Translations under genes and position numbers: made by a program
In this document: positions 1 to 55,861 of the stretch, one piece after another
How positions within the stretch are numbered: the stretch's first letter is position 1
Layout of the letters: every line of letters begins with the position of its first letter
From: Escherichia coli
GTDB taxonomy: Bacteria > Pseudomonadota > Gammaproteobacteria > Enterobacterales > Enterobacteriaceae
Length of the DNA stretch: 64,000 nt
Reading direction: 5' to 3' (one strand)
Assembly: GCF_003019035.1 (NCBI RefSeq)
Contig: NZ_CP027447.1
Notes under the pieces: generated by a model
What the model was told of the DNA's origin: nothing
Databases searched by the model: none
What the model saw: the letters and a program-made list of their open reading frames with translations, nothing else

Positions 1-285
1 TGCCGCAGGGCCAGTTATTGAGCGGTCAACGTGGCTCTCTGCTGCCAGGTGCATCACCGCGTCTGGCTGGTGCTGTGCGAAAATACGAGCCATCGCTTCG
101 GCATCGCAGATATCTGCATGCTCAAATGAATAACGTTCAGAATCAGAAATTTCAGCGAGTGATTCCAGGTTTCCGGCGTATGTTAATTTATCGACATTAA
201 CAACACTATCTTGCGTATTATTTATTATGTGACGAACAACAGCAGAACCAATAAATCCTGCGCCACCAGTAACAAGTATCTTCAC
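1..285 (-). CDS. rfbB: dTDP-glucose 4,6-dehydratase, N-terminal part (partial; gene continues beyond window start); GTG start at 285
   Basis: Reverse-complement translation gives [19 protein letters not shown]...[20 protein letters not shown], a Rossmann GxxGxxG N-terminus typical of RmlB; frame runs off the window edge. Confidence 0.85.
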
Positions 286-359
286 TTTTTTATTCCATAT
301 AGCCAGAGAGCATGCTGTGAAATAGACTGCTCCAGATTTGATTAATAGATGCATTAATG

Positions 360-399
360 CACGCTACCGCCCCTGGCTTAACAGCTACCAGAGCACTGC
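360..399 (-). promoter_or_regulatory. JUMPStart element with ops site (GGCGGTAGCGTG on minus strand) in the leader of the O-antigen operon
   Basis: Plus strand reads cacgctaccgcc at 360-371, the reverse complement of the ops 12-mer; it lies upstream of the rfbB start on the minus strand. Confidence 0.7.
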
Positions 400-576
400 G
401 TACATTTCCACGATGTGACGAGCGTAACCCACTCGTGCCAAATCCGAAAAATTCAAACGCTAATTGTCTTACCAAACAGCTGTAGAAACAAGGAAAATCC
501 TGGAAAAATTTGAACTATGATTGCAAGCTAACATGCTGTTTTTATTGTACTTATAAAAAAGACAACGGCAGTGAGA

Positions 577-631
577 TTCAATGAGCAAAACTTATGCTAT
601 GAATCTTCACTGCCGTTTTTAATTACTTACT
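577..631. terminator. Hairpin with flanking T/A runs downstream of galF; possible bidirectional terminator
   Basis: Inverted repeat cggcagtgagattca ... tgaatcttcactgccg followed by ttttt on plus strand and preceded by aaaaaa. Confidence 0.5.
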
Positions 632-657
632 GACCGACACTTCCAGTCAGGAATTTG

Positions 658-1551
658 TTACTCGCTTAACAGCTTCTCAATCCCTTTACGGAACTTCGCC
701 CCTTCTTTGAGGTTGCGTAGTCCATACTTCACAAATGCCTGCATATACCCCATTTTTTTACCGCAGTCGTAGCTGTCACCTGTCATCAGCATGGCATCAA
801 CGGACTGTTTTTTCGCCAGTTCAGCGATGGCATCAGTCAGCTGAATACGCCCCCATGCACCAGGCTGAGTGCGTTCAAGTTCCGGCCAAATATCTGCAGA
901 AAGCACATAGCGACCAACGGCCATGATGTCTGAGTCCAGCGTCTGCGGCTGATCCGGTTTTTCGATGAATTCAACAATGCGGCTGACTTTACCTTCGCGG
1001 TCCAGCGGCTCTTTGGTCTGGATGACAGAGTATTCAGAGAGGTCACCCGGCATACGTTTTGCCAGCACCTGGCTGCGGCCCGTTTCGTTGAAGCGCGCAA
1101 TCATGGCAGCAAGGTTGTAGCGCAGCGGGTCGGCGCTGGCGTCGTCGATCACAACGTCTGGCAGCACCACGACAAATGGATTGTCACCAATGGCAGGTCG
1201 TGCACATAAAATGGAGTGGCCCAAACCTAAAGGTTCGCCCTGACGCACGTTCATAATTGTCACGCCCGGCGGGCAAATGGACTGTACTTCCGCCAGCAGT
1301 TGACGCTTCACGCGCTGTTCAAGGAGAGATTCTAATTCATAAGAGGTGTCGAAGTGGTTTTCGACCGCGTTCTTGGAAGCGTGAGTTACCAGGAGGATTT
1401 CTTTGATCCCTGCAGCCACAATCTCGTCAACAATGTACTGAATCATTGGCTTGTCGACGATCGGTAGCATCTCTTTGGGAATCGCCTTAGTGGCAGGCAA
1501 CATATGCATCCCTAGACCCGCTACAGGAATAACTGCTTTTAAATTCGTCAT
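658..1551 (-). CDS. galF: UTP-glucose-1-phosphate uridylyltransferase regulatory paralogue GalF
   Basis: ORF-track protein [32 protein letters not shown]...; internal ATG at 1551 chosen over the 4-codon extension. Confidence 0.95.
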
Positions 1552-9999: not shown

Positions 10000-10099
10000 G
10001 TCGTTACCCTTTTTCAGGCAATAGTTGGCCCTGACCGAAACGGCCAATTTTGTTTTTTCGTTATTTACCGGAGAATTAATCCGGTTGATTATTCAACGG

Positions 10100-24438: not shown

Positions 24439-24478
24439 CACGCTACCGCCCCTGGCTTTTTAGCTACCAATACACTGA
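24439..24478 (-). promoter_or_regulatory. JUMPStart/ops element in the wza (cps operon) leader
   Basis: Plus strand cacgctaccgcc at 24439-24450 is the reverse complement of ops GGCGGTAGCGTG; flanks nearly identical to the copy at 360-399. Confidence 0.75.
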
Positions 24479-26576: not shown

Positions 26577-26915
26577 ATGAGAAAAAAGCTGGCTTTTCTT
26601 GATACCAGTCTTGACGATTTACGCGCATTTCCAGAATCGTCTCGACAGGAAATTGGCTATCAACTCGACAGGTTCCAACAAGGGTTAAACCCATACGACT
26701 GGAAACCTTTTTCAACTATCGGCCCTGGTGTGCGAGAGATTCGTACTCGCGATGCTGATGGGATCTATCGCGTCATGTATATCGCAAAATTTGAAGAAGC
26801 GGTTTACGTATTGCATTGTTTTCAAAAGAAAACACAGACTACCAGTCAATCGGATGTTGATTTAGCCAAACGACGCTATAAAGAACTTGTTCAGGAGCGG
26901 AAAAATGAAAATTGA
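26577..26915 (+). CDS. Type II toxin, RelE/ParE-fold, HigB-2/Gp49-like ('addiction module killer protein' family)
   Basis: 112-aa ORF with RBS aaggatgga; sequence pattern …IRTRDADGIYRVMYIAKFEEAVYVLHCFQKKTQ… typical of Gp49/HigB-like toxins; followed by an overlapping XRE antitoxin gene. Confidence 0.7.
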   Translation: MRKKLAFLDTSLDDLRAFPESSRQEIGYQLDRFQQGLNPYDWKPFSTIGPGVREIRTRDADGIYRVMYIAKFEEAVYVLHCFQKKTQTTSQSDVDLAKRRYKELVQERKNEN

Positions 26916-27195
26916 AACCTTTGATAGTGTGTGGGATGCGGTGAGTGACACCCCTGAACAAGCGGAAAATATGCGGATCCGTGCCGAACTTGTAACGATC
27001 ATTAATAACTGGATTGAACAACAAGGGTTTAGCCAGGCCCAGGCAGCGTCTGCTTTAGGGGTCACTCAACCTCGCATATCTGAACTTGCCAGAGGTAAGA
27101 TCCAGATCTTTAGTATCGATAAATTGATCACCATGATGGCTCATGCAGGATTGCATATTCAACGTATTGAAATTCAATATCCACATGCTGCTTAG
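26905..27195 (+). CDS. Type II antitoxin, XRE-family HTH ('addiction module antidote protein')
   Basis: 96-aa ORF MKIETFDSVWDAV… with HTH LGVTQPRISELARGK; RBS aggagcgg; overlaps toxin gene by 11 nt. Confidence 0.7.
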   Translation: MKIETFDSVWDAVSDTPEQAENMRIRAELVTIINNWIEQQGFSQAQAASALGVTQPRISELARGKIQIFSIDKLITMMAHAGLHIQRIEIQYPHAA

Positions 27196-40556: not shown

Positions 40557-40736
40557 AAGAAATCCTTTCTTAGAGAATTATTGAGGTCCGGTATCATACC
40601 GATTGCAATAATGAAATAAGAGCAAACGAAGAAACTTTCAGAATTAGGCCCGGCGGCGCAGAAAATTTTGCTATTCGCCTCGCAAGAACGGAGAGCCGTC
40701 GATTGACACTAAGGGCGGAGTGACATAATTTCAGGA

Positions 40737-40886
40737 GTGAGGGTTAGGGAGAGGTTTCCCCCTCCCCCTGGTGTTCTTAGTAAGCCTGGAAGCTAATCAC
40801 TAAGAGTATCACCAGTATGATGACGTGCTTCATCATAACCCTTTCCTTATTAAAAGCCCTCTTCTCCGGGAGAGGGTTTCCCGTTT
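40737..40886 (+). ncRNA. sibA: Sib antisense sRNA (type I antitoxin), copy 1; ends approximate
   Basis: -35 ttgaca (40703-40708), 17-bp spacer, -10 taattt (40726-40731); intrinsic terminator gccctcttctccgggagagggtttcccgtttc ending ~40886; fully antisense to ibs ORF. Confidence 0.6.
40777..40836 (-). CDS. ibsA: Type I toxin IbsA-like, 19 aa (MMKHVIILVILLVISFQAY)
   Basis: Reverse-complement translation; SD aaggaaag upstream; differs from remembered K-12 IbsA by one residue (P17Q). Confidence 0.8.
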   Translation of the reverse strand: MMKHVIILVILLVISFQAY

Positions 40887-41071
40887 CAGCGTCCCGCTGA
40901 AATCGTCGGCTTACCTCCTTTCGCCCTGAATGCAGTCTATCGCTAACGCGTGAACAAAATAGTTTCCTCTGTGATTATTCCGTAACGACTCGCAAAGAAT
41001 ATTTGCTGGCAGGATCGCAGACTACAAAGCCTGCGGATTGACAATCTTATCGTGAAGGCATAATTTCAGGA

Positions 41072-41214
41072 GTGAGGGTAGAGCGGGGTTTCCCCCGCCC
41101 TGGTAGTCTTAGTAAGCGGGGAAGCTTATGACTAAGAGCACCACGATGATGAGTATCTTCATCATGACCCTTTCCTTATTTATGGCCCCTTCCTCGGGAG
41201 GGGCTTTCCCGTTT
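41072..41214 (+). ncRNA. sibB: Sib antisense sRNA, copy 2; ends approximate
   Basis: -35 ttgaca 41038-41043, -10 taattt 41061-41066; terminator hairpin ggcccctcctcgggaggggc + ttcccgtttc (41184-41214). Confidence 0.6.
41109..41165 (-). CDS. ibsB: Type I toxin IbsB-like, 18 aa (MMKILIIVVLLVISFPAY)
   Basis: Reverse-complement translation with SD; hydrophobic Ibs-family peptide. Confidence 0.8.
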   Translation of the reverse strand: MMKILIIVVLLVISFPAY

Positions 41215-41399
41215 CAGCGTCCCGCTGAAATCGTCGGCTTACCTCCTTCTGTCCTGTATGCAGTCTATCGCTGACTTGCGGATAAAATAGTTTCCAATGT
41301 GATTATTGCGTAACGTCTCGCAAAGAATATTTGCTGGCAGGATCGCAGACTGCAAAGCCTGCAGATTGACAATATTATCGTGAAGGCATACTTTCAGGA

Positions 41400-41543
41400 G
41401 TGAGGGTAGAGCGGGGTTTCCCCCGCCCTGGTAGTCTTAGTAAGCCGGGAAGCTTATGACTAAGAGCACCACGATGATGATCCACTTCATCATGACCCTT
41501 TCCTTATTTAAGGCCCCTTCCTCGGGAGGGGCTTTCCCGTTTC
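41400..41543 (+). ncRNA. Sib antisense sRNA, copy 3; ends approximate
   Basis: -35 ttgaca 41366-41371, -10 tacttt 41389-41394; terminator hairpin 41512-41543. Confidence 0.55.
41437..41493 (-). CDS. Type I toxin Ibs-family, third copy, 18 aa (MMKWIIIVVLLVISFPAY)
   Basis: Reverse-complement translation; same frame/SD as copy 2 but with Trp at position 4. Confidence 0.7.
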   Translation of the reverse strand: MMKWIIIVVLLVISFPAY

Positions 41544-46141: not shown

Positions 46142-49100
46142 GTGAAGTTTTTTGCCCTCTTCATTTACCGCCCGGTGGCGACGATTTTACTGTCGGTCGC
46201 CATTACCCTGTGCGGCATACTGGGTTTCCGTATGCTGCCAGTCGCCCCGCTGCCACAGGTCGATTTTCCGGTGATCATGGTCAGCGCCTCGCTGCCCGGT
46301 GCGTCACCAGAAACAATGGCGTCTTCCGTTGCCACGCCGCTGGAGCGCTCACTTGGGCGCATTGCCGGAGTCAGCGAAATGACCTCCAGCAGTTCGCTCG
46401 GCAGCACGCGCATTATTTTGCAGTTTGATTTTGACCGGGATATCAACGGCGCAGCGCGCGATGTGCAGGCGGCGATCAACGCCGCGCAAAGTCTGCTACC
46501 CAGCGGGATGCCCAGCCGTCCGACCTATCGCAAAGCGAACCCGTCGGATGCGCCAATTATGATCCTGACGCTAACCTCCGATACTTATTCGCAAGGTGAA
46601 CTGTACGATTTCGCCTCAACACAGCTGGCTCCGACGATTTCGCAAATCGACGGTGTCGGTGATGTCGATGTTGGCGGCAGCTCGCTGCCCGCCGTACGCG
46701 TCGGGCTGAATCCGCAGGCGCTGTTTAATCAGGGCGTCTCGCTGGACGACGTACGCACTGCCATCAGCAATGCCAACGTGCGTAAACCGCAGGGCGCGCT
46801 GGAAGATGGCACTCACCGCTGGCAGATCCAGACCAACGATGAACTGAAAACAGCCGCTGAATATCAGCCGTTGATTATTCATTACAACAACGGCGGCGCG
46901 GTTCGTCTGGGCGATGTGGCGACGGTGACCGACTCAGTACAGGATGTGCGCAACGCCGGGATGACCAACGCCAAACCGGCTATTTTGCTGATGATCCGCA
47001 AGCTGCCGGAAGCCAATATTATCCAGACGGTTGACAGCATCCGCGCCCGTCTGCCGGAATTACAATCCACCATCCCGGCAGCAATTGATCTGCAAATTGC
47101 CCAGGATCGCTCCCCTACTATCCGCGCGTCGCTGGAAGAGGTTGAGCAGACGCTGATTATCTCGGTGGCGCTGGTGATTCTGGTGGTGTTTTTATTCCTG
47201 CGCTCGGGTCGCGCCACTATTATTCCCGCCGTTGCGGTGCCGGTTTCGCTGATTGGTACGTTTGCGGCGATGTACCTGTGCGGATTCAGTCTCAATAACC
47301 TTTCGTTAATGGCACTCACCATCGCTACTGGTTTCGTGGTGGATGACGCCATCGTGGTGCTGGAAAACATTGCCCGTCACCTGGAAGCGGGGATGAAACC
47401 ACTACAGGCCGCACTGCAAGGTACTCGCGAAGTCGGTTTTACGGTGCTGTCGATGAGTCTGTCACTGGTGGCGGTGTTCCTGCCGCTGCTGTTGATGGGC
47501 GGATTGCCGGGTCGCCTGTTACGCGAGTTTGCCGTGACGCTTTCTGTCGCCATTGGTATTTCGTTGCTGGTTTCCCTGACGTTAACGCCGATGATGTGCG
47601 GCTGGATGCTGAAAGCCAGCAAGCCGCGCGAGCAAAAGCGACTGCGTGGTTTTGGTCGCATGTTGGTAGCCCTGCAACAAGGCTATGGCAAGTCGCTGAA
47701 ATGGGTGCTCAATCATACCCGTCTGGTGGGCGTGGTGCTGCTTGGCACCATTGCGCTGAATATCTGGCTGTATATCTCGATCCCGAAAACCTTCTTCCCG
47801 GAGCAGGACACCGGCGTGTTGATGGGCGGGATACAGGCGGATCAGAGTATTTCGTTTCAGGCGATGCGCAGTAAGTTGCAGGATTTTATGAAAATTATCC
47901 GTGACGATCCGGCGGTGGATAATGTCACCGGCTTTACCGGCGGTTCGCGGGTGAACAGTGGGATGATGTTTATCACCCTCAAGCCACGCGACGAACGCAG
48001 CGAAACGGCGCAGCAAATTATCGACCGTCTGCGCGTAAAACTGGCGAAAGAACCGGGGGCGAATCTGTTCCTGATGGCGGTACAGGATATTCGCGTTGGC
48101 GGACGTCAGGCTAACGCCAGCTACCAGTACACATTATTGTCCGACGATCTGGCGGCACTGCGCGAATGGGAGCCGAAAATCCGCAAAAAACTGGCGACGT
48201 TGCCGGAACTGGCGGACGTGAACTCCGATCAGCAGGATAACGGCGCGGAAATGAATCTGGTTTACGACCGCGACACCATGGCACGGCTGGGAATCGACGT
48301 GCAGGCCGCCAACAGCCTGTTAAATAACGCCTTCGGTCAGCGGCAAATCTCGACCATTTACCAGCCGATGAACCAGTATAAAGTGGTGATGGAAGTGGAT
48401 CCGCGCTATACCCAGGACATCAGTGCGCTGGAAAAAATGTTCGTTATCAATAACGAAGGAAAAGCGATCCCGCTGTCGTATTTCGCTAAATGGCAACCGG
48501 CGAATGCCCCACTATCGGTGAATCATCAGGGATTATCGGCGGCCTCGACCATCTCGTTCAACCTGCCGACCGGGAAATCGCTCTCGGACGCCAGTGCGGC
48601 GATCGATCGCGCAATGACCCAGCTTGGTGTGCCTTCGACGGTGCGCGGTAGTTTTGCCGGCACGGCGCAGGTGTTCCAGGAGACGATGAACTCGCAGGTG
48701 ATCCTGATTATCGCCGCCATCGCCACGGTGTATATCGTGCTGGGTATCCTTTACGAGAGTTACGTACATCCGCTGACGATTCTCTCCACCCTGCCCTCGG
48801 CGGGCGTTGGAGCGCTGTTGGCGCTGGAGCTGTTCAATGCCCCGTTCAGCCTAATCGCCCTGATAGGGATCATGCTATTAATCGGCATCGTGAAGAAAAA
48901 CGCCATTATGATGGTCGATTTTGCGCTCGAAGCCCAACGGCACGGTAACCTGACGCCGCAGGAAGCTATTTTCCAGGCCTGTCTGCTGCGTTTTCGCCCG
49001 ATTATGATGACTACCCTGGCGGCGCTGTTTGGCGCGCTGCCGCTGGTGTTGTCGGGCGGTGACGGCTCGGAGCTGCGGCAACCCCTGGGGATCACCATTG

Positions 49101-49219
49101 TCGGCGGTCTGGTAATGAGCCAGCTTCTGACGCTGTATACCACGCCGGTGGTGTATCTCTTTTTCGACCGTCTGCGGCTGCGTTTTTCGCGTAAACCTAA
49201 ACAAACGGTAACCGAGTAA
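46142..49219 (+). CDS. mdtC: Multidrug efflux RND transporter subunit MdtC (GTG start)
   Basis: 1025-aa [29 protein letters not shown]…. Confidence 0.95.
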
Positions 49220-53305: not shown

Positions 53306-53519
53306 ATCAAAACAACTCTTAGTTATTGATAATTAAGATTAACCTCCGCCATTAAAATAGTGGGCACTGACGAGCACTCGTTGTGCTTTCTTTGTTTACC
53401 ATCCCATACTTATCTTCCTGAACATGTTCATATGCCAAAATATCTTCTAATACTTTCGTGACGCTATCCGGTTTATGAAATACACTGATGTAAGATTTTT
53501 ACTTACAGGCGGGTGTAAA

Positions 53520-53771
53520 ATGGCCAGAACGATGACGGTTGATCTCGGCGATGAGTTGCGTGAATTTATCGAGTCCTTAATTGAATCCGGCGACTATCGC
53601 ACCCAAAGCGAAGTGATCCGTGAGTCGCTGCGCTTACTTCGAGAAAAGCAAGCAGAGTCTCGCCTGCAAGCGTTACGTGACATGCTCGCTGAAGGGTTGA
53701 GTAGTGGTGAAGCTCAGCCGTGGGAAAAGGACGCGTTTTTACGGAAGGTGAAAGCAGGGATAAGGAAATAA
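53520..53771 (+). CDS. parD: Type II antitoxin ParD (ribbon-helix-helix)
   Basis: 83-aa product MARTMTVDLGDELREFIESLIESGDYRTQSEVIRESLRLLREK… characteristic ParD N-terminus; stop overlaps downstream toxin start region. Confidence 0.8.
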   Translation: MARTMTVDLGDELREFIESLIESGDYRTQSEVIRESLRLLREKQAESRLQALRDMLAEGLSSGEAQPWEKDAFLRKVKAGIRK

Positions 53772-53772
53772 T

Positions 53773-54069
53773 GTGCGTACTATAAAACTCATGCCAAAAG
53801 CCAATGAGGATTTAGAAGGCATCTGGTATTACAGCTATCACCATTTCGGCGAACCACAAGCCGACAGATATGTGGAACATCTTTCAGACGTTCTCCAGAT
53901 TCTGAGTAACAATAATATAGGTACGCCCAGACCTGAATTAGGCGAAGGTATTTTTGTTCTTCCTTTTGAACGCCACGTAATTTATTTCCTGCAATCACCA
54001 GAGGAAATTATCGTCATTCGTATCCTTAACCAAAACCAGTACGCCTCCAGACATTTACACTGGAGCTAA
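53773..54069 (+). CDS. parE: Type II toxin ParE (RelE/ParE superfamily); GTG start
   Basis: 98-aa ORF …ANEDLEGIWYYSYHHFGEPQADRYVEHL…HVIYFLQSPEEIIVIRILNQNQ…; starts 2 nt after parD stop. Confidence 0.8.
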   Translation: MRTIKLMPKANEDLEGIWYYSYHHFGEPQADRYVEHLSDVLQILSNNNIGTPRPELGEGIFVLPFERHVIYFLQSPEEIIVIRILNQNQYASRHLHWS

Positions 54070-55533: not shown

Positions 55534-55861
55534 TTCATTTCGATTATTTTTCCCGGATGGAAAATTCTTAGAAACCGATCACATACAGCTGCATTTATTA
55601 AGGTTATCATCCGTTTCGCTGAAAAACATAACCCATAAAATGCTAGCTGTACCAGGAACCACCTCCTTAGCCTGTGTAATCTCCCTTACACGGGCTTATT
55701 TTTTATACATAAGCCGTATCCTGGTAACCGTCTTCCATTGACCACATCGATAGAATCTCCCCTCATAGCACGATGCCTTTCACTTATTGGCATCGTGCTC
55801 GCACAGGTTCCGGTTACGCACAGCCAGAACGCGCATGTTTGACGCTTACCAAAAAATATTC

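Follow-up and report, generated by a model that had tools for sequence, protein, structure and literature searches.

Introduction

The rfaH gene is a core gene of Escherichia coli. Operons controlled by RfaH all carry the 12-nt ops (operon polarity suppressor) element in their leader, where RNA polymerase pauses at C9 and U11 (Zuber et al., PMC5995543). RfaH binds a hairpin formed by the non-template strand of ops, with T6 flipped into a pocket of the protein, and substitutions at G4, G5, A7 or G8 abolish its recruitment (PMC5995543). ChIP-seq in strain CFT073 found RfaH together with polymerase at the wzx locus, labelled 'colanic acid and O-antigen synthesis', and all RfaH targets in those data had ops in the 5′ leader and an H-NS coat (Hustmyer et al., PMC9765446). 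RfaH inhibits backtracking, recruits the ribosome and displaces NusG so that Rho cannot terminate transcription (PMC9765446).

The form of ops that is typical of polysaccharide clusters is embedded in a longer, 39-nt element, JUMPstart, with a hairpin upstream of ops. The 39-bp element was reportedly introduced by Hobbs and Reeves in 1994. Marolda and Valvano are said to have mapped the transcript of the O7 O-antigen cluster of E. coli in 1998 and to have found a leader of 173 nt. A conserved stem-loop among JUMPstart elements was already described by Weinberg et al. (PMC2864571).

Here we compare with these systems a leader found at the left end of a 64 kb stretch of E. coli DNA (the window, numbered from its first base). 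A preliminary description had recognized an O-antigen operon leader with an ops site at this end and had concluded that the window starts inside the rfb cluster. We put at about 0.93 the probability that this region serves an E. coli O-antigen (rfb/wb*) operon as its untranslated leader and works by the established RfaH/ops mechanism. A JUMPstart/ops leader of an O-antigen operon is textbook knowledge, and the analysis below sets out how this one is built, how conserved it is and what may be read from it.

Results

An exact ops site ends a full-length JUMPstart

JUMPstart, ops, rfbB and galF all lie on the minus strand of the window. The ops consensus GGCGGTAGnnTG was matched on the non-template strand by GGCGGTAGCGTG at 371..360, an exact match (12/12) on the sense strand of rfbB. 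This site lies within a 39-nt JUMPstart at 398..360, a full-length match to Rfam family RF01707 that covers model positions 1-38 of 38 and scores 61.1 bits, against a gathering score of 35 (E = 1.3e-11 for the whole window). JUMPstart begins with a 7-nt 5′ tail, continues with a hairpin and ends with a G followed by ops as its last 12 nt; it also contains a direct repeat of GGTAGC, at 389..384 and 368..363. The preliminary description had marked 360-399 as an operon leader with an ops site. A perfect ops does lie there, but the range takes in all 39 bp of JUMPstart and one further base. The U11 position of ops, where RNA polymerase is expected to pause, corresponds to window position 361.

The element is intergenic, located after the galF terminator and 74 nt before rfbB. 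RF01707, as described by Weinberg et al. in 2010, has the same 5-bp stem and unpaired ops tail; the window element has one extra nucleotide in the loop and otherwise no difference of substance from the consensus. The 'ops12' oligonucleotide used in structural work on the RfaH:ops complex is identical to the GGCGGTAGCGTG of the window (PMC5995543). The ops sites of the RfaH-dependent waaQ/rfaQ, hly, kps and tra operons share the same 12-nt core, and their location in the 5′ leader is that of all RfaH targets (PMC9765446). Two further Rfam matches in positions 1-700, PYLIS_6 (E = 0.75) and Afu_304 (E = 0.91), fell far under their cut-offs and were dismissed as chance.

JUMPstart is the conservation peak of divergent E. 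coli leaders

We compared the spacer between galF and the first gene of the cluster in the window and in 10 further E. coli genomes, picked across the whole range of similarity (11 divergent spacers). The first genes of the sampled loci were rfbB, pseB, wzx (O83), a tviB-like gene (O121), a glycosyltransferase gene and the group-1 capsule gene wzi. Identity to the window was 94-95% in the three 13-nt bins at 397..359, versus 23-88% in every other bin, and JUMPstart was the conservation peak of the spacer. The weakest BLAST matches retained query positions 260-299 alone, which is JUMPstart. Within ops, two variants were found among the 11 leaders, C for G at base 360 in TUM2805 and A for G at base 362 in EC596; all other ops bases were invariant.

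Some RefSeq records call a coding sequence across JUMPstart. In TUM2805 this is a 40-aa 'hypothetical protein' on the strand opposite JUMPstart (L007 2492-2614), and in AH19E004 a glycosyltransferase whose start is set upstream of the element (L009 2710-3624). Both calls are probably annotation artefacts.

The JUMPstart hairpin covaries across genera

In the pairing of the Rfam model, the hairpin joins CUGGU (391..387) to GCCAG (377..373) by 5 bp around a 9-nt loop. The pairing was tested on elements from other species. One genome per species (∼300 Gb) was scanned for AGC-N12-GGCGGTAGCGTG, giving 120 loci. Most of them lay in unrelated phyla and were chance matches, the outcome expected when 15 bases are specified in a search of this size. 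We retained only loci with JUMPstart features that are independent of the stem, namely AG at positions 2-3, AGCT in the loop and G before ops. The final alignment of 25 elements comprised 22 scan loci, the two JUMPstarts of the window and the E. coli O83 leader, and included E. albertii, Superficieibacter, Pluralibacter, Citrobacter, Pantoea, Rahnella and Arsenophonus. Among the sequences kept, L109 probably remains a chance match. Because the scan pattern prescribed AGC(T) in the loop, conservation of these bases among the scan loci is uninformative.

Standard pairs occupied 96% of the stem cells of this alignment, which spans several genera, and all five stem pairs varied on both sides. Pair 9-25 was UA in 13 elements, AU in 7 and GU in 3, and pair 10-24 occurred as GC, GU and UA variants. 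When the 3′ partner was slid by 1-3 columns, pairing dropped to 18-61%, compared with 96% in register. Such covariation of a 5-bp stem across genera indicates selection on pairing, beyond conservation of sequence alone. We conclude that the JUMPstart hairpin is real.

A real hairpin raises the question of whether JUMPstart is mainly a structured RNA of the mRNA leader, with a hairpin for stability, processing or protein binding, or whether its upstream half adds an RNA role to RfaH loading. Apart from the covariation across genera, this would agree with the classification of JUMPstart by Rfam as a cis-regulatory RNA, with the conserved stem-loop reported by Weinberg et al. (PMC2864571), and with the fold of a leader taken as 173 nt long, which is somewhat better than that of shuffles (z = -2.1). 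The same pairing could, however, form in single-stranded non-template DNA. Some other ops sites, such as those of hly and tra, function without the upstream half of JUMPstart. Moreover, the most invariant part of the element is not the stem but the unpaired ops, an experimentally established DNA signal (PMC5995543). We consider such an RNA role unlikely, while noting that it is compatible with the DNA signal of ops, the two not being mutually exclusive.

galF, a terminator and a probable promoter precede JUMPstart

The gene upstream of the leader, at 1551..658, is galF (UTP-glucose-1-phosphate uridylyltransferase GalF). It was identified by NCBIfam model TIGR01105 (689 bits, above the cut-off of 659) and by the RefSeq annotation of identical sequence. 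This conserved gene borders the O-antigen locus on its 5′ side. Its TAA stop codon is at 660..658, and a short hairpin comes next on the minus strand. An intrinsic-terminator-like hairpin was found at 617..555, in which a stem (617..564) is followed by GUC and, at 560..555, by UUUUUU. Folding of the 118 nt around it (657..540) gave -40.2 kcal/mol, compared with -18.9 +/- 3.2 in shuffles (z = -6.8), and none of 200 shuffles folded as well. This hairpin probably separates transcription of galF from that of the O-antigen operon.

The terminator is followed by a spacer of ∼160 nt up to JUMPstart, which contains a second conserved block at 501..450 (minus strand; identity of 0.83, 0.65, 0.88 and 0.81 in successive bins). 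We take this block to be the probable promoter of the operon, placing it by conservation because a scan of positions 1-1000 for the sigma-70 consensus left the minus strand of the leader without a promoter call. The totals of that scan did not exceed those of shuffles (2 found, 1.6 expected), and its sole plus-strand match, at 378-406, was rejected, as it overlaps JUMPstart on the wrong strand. Candidate promoter elements within the block would be TTGTTT (-35, 491..486) and GACAAT (-10, 468..463), separated by a 17-nt spacer. If the 173-nt length reported for the O7 leader applies here, transcription would start at ∼458. The leader of the E. coli O7 O-antigen cluster has the same order of elements, i.e., galF, terminator, promoter region, JUMPstart with two GGTAGC repeats, and rfbB.

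The first gene of the operon is rfbB

Downstream of the leader lies the 5′ fragment of rfbB/rmlB (dTDP-glucose 4,6-dehydratase), codons 1-95, which occupies 285..1 on the minus strand and runs off the window edge. The GTG start codon proposed at 285 was confirmed: it occupies 285..283, and in genomes with 100% identical sequence RefSeq places the start of rfbB at the same base. Between the last base of ops (360) and the G of this GTG (285) there are 74 bases, in agreement with the 'about 75 bp' estimated earlier. Translation of 285..1 gave 95 codons with no stop and, at residues 7-13, the Rossmann motif GGAGFIG (GxxGxxG type). Comparison of this translation with RmlB/RfbB had been set beforehand as the refutation test of the preliminary description, which withstood it. 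The best NCBIfam match was PRK10084, the model of dTDP-glucose 4,6-dehydratase (E = 2.2e-55, 188 bits, profile positions 1-95 of 361), followed by matches to the paralogous model PRK10217 (6e-45, 154 bits) and to TIGR01181 (2.1e-37, aligned from profile position 1). The scores are under the full-length cut-offs because just 95 of ∼361 residues are present. Pfam assigned the fragment to Epimerase and GDP_Man_Dehyd, which are NAD-dependent epimerase/dehydratase families. The catalytic residues of RmlB (Thr, Asp-Glu and Tyr-x-x-x-Lys) and its substrate-binding C-terminal domain lie past residue 95, outside the window; by implication, the gene annotated at full length in the identical public sequence would contain them.

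The 74-nt distal leader (359..286, minus strand), between ops and the start of rfbB, is kept among leaders with rfbB as first gene and replaced where the first gene differs. It contains a weak Shine-Dalgarno-like GGAA at 296..293, 7 nt before the GTG. A two-codon mini-frame, AUG-GAA-UAA (298..290, minus strand), overlaps this GGAA, stops 4 nt before the GTG and is conserved in leaders with rfbB first. Two longer open reading frames of this region, a 61-aa frame starting with TTG at 290-475 (minus strand) and a 42-aa frame at 357-485 (plus strand), were considered spurious; RefSeq leaves both unannotated in identical sequence.

The order galF, JUMPstart/ops, rfbB canonically marks the 5′ boundary of O-antigen clusters in E. 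coli, which bears out the placement of the window start inside the rfb cluster. When window 660..1 was compared with complete E. coli genomes by megablast, many 100% matches were returned, all annotated as galF followed by rfbB. Leader and rfbB fragment could in principle derive from a different polysaccharide locus, such as a group 1 capsule locus or that of the enterobacterial common antigen paralogue rffG. E. coli does have a second dTDP-glucose dehydratase, with PRK10217 matching the fragment at 6e-45, and in TUM2805 the galF-proximal JUMPstart precedes a wzi/polysaccharide-export locus of capsule type. PRK10084, however, beats PRK10217 by 188 to 154 bits. Furthermore, the fragment is 100% identical to annotated rfbB genes located between galF and rfbD-rfbA-rfbC-wzx-wzy clusters, and the near-identical genome of strain SCU-301 has an O36-family Wzx/Wzy cluster at this place. 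An origin outside the O-antigen locus is therefore very improbable.

The operon continues beyond the window in a near-identical genome

Over the first 25 kb of the window, E. coli SCU-301 (NZ_CP051751.1) was the sole record with 100.0% identity; the second-best record had 98.7%. SCU-301 showed 0 mismatches to the window over the 14.66 kb nearest JUMPstart, and 1 substitution and 3 one-base indels in the other 50 kb. These four differences are at 48977, 49017, 49087 and 59518, three of them inside mdtC (46142-49219, plus strand). This gene is an intact ORF of 1025 codons in the window and 'frameshifted' in the SCU-301 record, probably as a result of an assembly or polishing error in either sequence.

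The body of the operon lies outside the window and was read in this near-identical public genome only. Past the window edge, ∼15 same-strand genes continue from rfbB in SCU-301, in agreement with the earlier view of rfbB as the first gene of a long operon that extends past the window. Their order is rfbB, rfbD, rfbA, rfbC, an O36-family wzx, glycosyltransferase genes, an O36-family wzy, gmd, fcl, gmm, manC, a further glycosyltransferase gene and manB. GC content is 29-45% in this operon versus ∼55% in the adjoining colanic acid cluster. Also as described previously, the serotype-determining genes are not visible, since wzx, wzy and glycosyltransferase genes are absent from the window. The preliminary description had named no strand and had proposed to extend the sequence 'upstream'. 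The operon is on the minus strand and exits the left edge of the window, so the extension meant would lie below coordinate 1, on the downstream side for the operon.

The O36-family wzy of SCU-301 (L003 20639-21892) is annotated as a pseudogene with a frameshift and an internal stop, which could be a sequencing error. If the pseudogene is real, the LPS core of the strain would receive no more than one O unit.

The leader does not predict the serotype

The 660 bp at the window start (galF end, spacer and rfbB 5′ end) are 100% identical in several genomes with O7 clusters, one of them labelled O7:H15, and among the 100% matches there are clusters of O7 as well as of the O36 family. SCU-301, the closest genome, differs from the O7 cluster in having a variable part of the O36 family. 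A strain labelled O25b:H4-ST131 and BL21 both share 99.7% identity with the window over the 372-bp spacer. At least 99% identity to the 660 bp was found in 308 records, whereas the leader occurred together with an O7 wzx in only 95 genomes. Inference of the serotype from the leader was therefore rejected: the same 660 bp stand before O7 and O36-family clusters, which makes the leader unusable for this purpose.

A second JUMPstart precedes the colanic acid operon

Pattern GGCGGTAGNNTG matched twice in the 64 kb window, compared with 0.10 matches expected from shuffles, and 0 of 100 shuffles of the window had at least two matches. The second match, at 24450..24439, lies upstream of wza within another complete JUMPstart (24477..24439, minus strand; RF01707, 57.3 bits), whose ops is identical and whose stem is the same. 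The loop and 5′ tail of this colanic acid (wza-wca) element are unlike those of the rfb JUMPstart, and the two leaders have no obvious similarity outside the 39 nt. The distance from JUMPstart to the first gene also differs, ∼178 nt for wza versus 74 nt for rfbB. Although 12-mers can arise by chance, a functionless chance occurrence of ops is effectively refuted by the location of both matches in polysaccharide operon leaders where 0.10 were expected, by the Rfam E-value of 1e-11 and by the peak of conservation at JUMPstart across divergent spacers.

Several other features of the window were recorded. In the colanic acid operon, the ∼100-nt spacer between cpsB and cpsG (phosphomannomutase) holds a match to the 'algC RNA' motif, RF02929, at 10004-10053 (minus strand; 78.2 bits, cut-off 33.8). 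Three tandem Sib antitoxin RNAs were found at 40703-41508 (plus strand; 149.5, 142.6 and 141 bits); a near-identical genome has three Ibs type I toxin genes opposite them, between mdtA and yegL. K-12 has two copies (sibA/sibB) at this locus, so the three of the window would be a copy-number variant. The small RNA CyaR/RyeE is at 55616-55701 (plus strand; 100.7 bits). By the SCU-301 annotation there are also two small type II toxin-antitoxin pairs of RelE/ParE type, probably strain-variable insertions. One is a ParE/ParD-like pair between yegQ and yegP (∼53475-54069; L005 9932-10526), and the other a RelE-like protein with an HTH protein between asmA and yegH (∼26577-27195; L005 36806-37424).

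Discussion

Nothing in the data contradicts the assignment of this region to the O-antigen leader, with RfaH and ops as its mode of action. The operon is probably RfaH-dependent, as suggested by the sequence signal together with the literature, and from the same literature the following course of events can be proposed. The rfaH gene itself is not among the genes of the window. Transcription would most likely start at ∼500-460, just past the galF terminator, so that JUMPstart would be transcribed ∼60-100 nt into the leader. In the non-template strand of the transcription bubble, ops would pause polymerase at U11 (window 361) and its DNA would fold as a small hairpin, offering G5 and T6 to RfaH. 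Once bound, RfaH is predicted to stay with polymerase, to keep NusG off and to suppress both pausing and termination by Rho. After refolding, the KOW domain of RfaH could bind ribosomal protein S10 and so aid translation of genes with poor ribosome-binding sites. The expected outcome is a full-length transcript of a long, AT-rich, H-NS-prone operon, from rfbB at 285 past coordinate 1. The GTG start of rfbB, its weak GGAA and the AT-rich body of the operon all fit this picture of RfaH action.

The covarying hairpin may have a part in this process. Its end lies 12 nt upstream of U11; the distances to G10 and C9 are 11 and 10 nt. The hairpin of the his class-I pause has nearly the same spacing to its pause. 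The JUMPstart hairpin, formed in the nascent RNA, might thus prolong the ops pause or cap backtracking. We offer this as a speculation that is more probably wrong than right by a wide measure; its basis is the spacing and the covariation, and no paper linking the JUMPstart hairpin to ops pausing was found in the literature searched. If true, the hairpin would widen the loading window for scarce RfaH, specifically at polysaccharide operons.

For the annotation of this DNA, the leader anchors the window's left edge to the O-antigen locus, at its 5′ boundary and with the minus strand as sense strand, and it tells the annotator that the serotype-determining genes are just outside. It also calls for caution, as the 660-bp leader and rfbB start are no guide to serotype. 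As to the biology of E. coli, the leader of the window is one more instance of the well-understood anti-termination by RfaH and ops.
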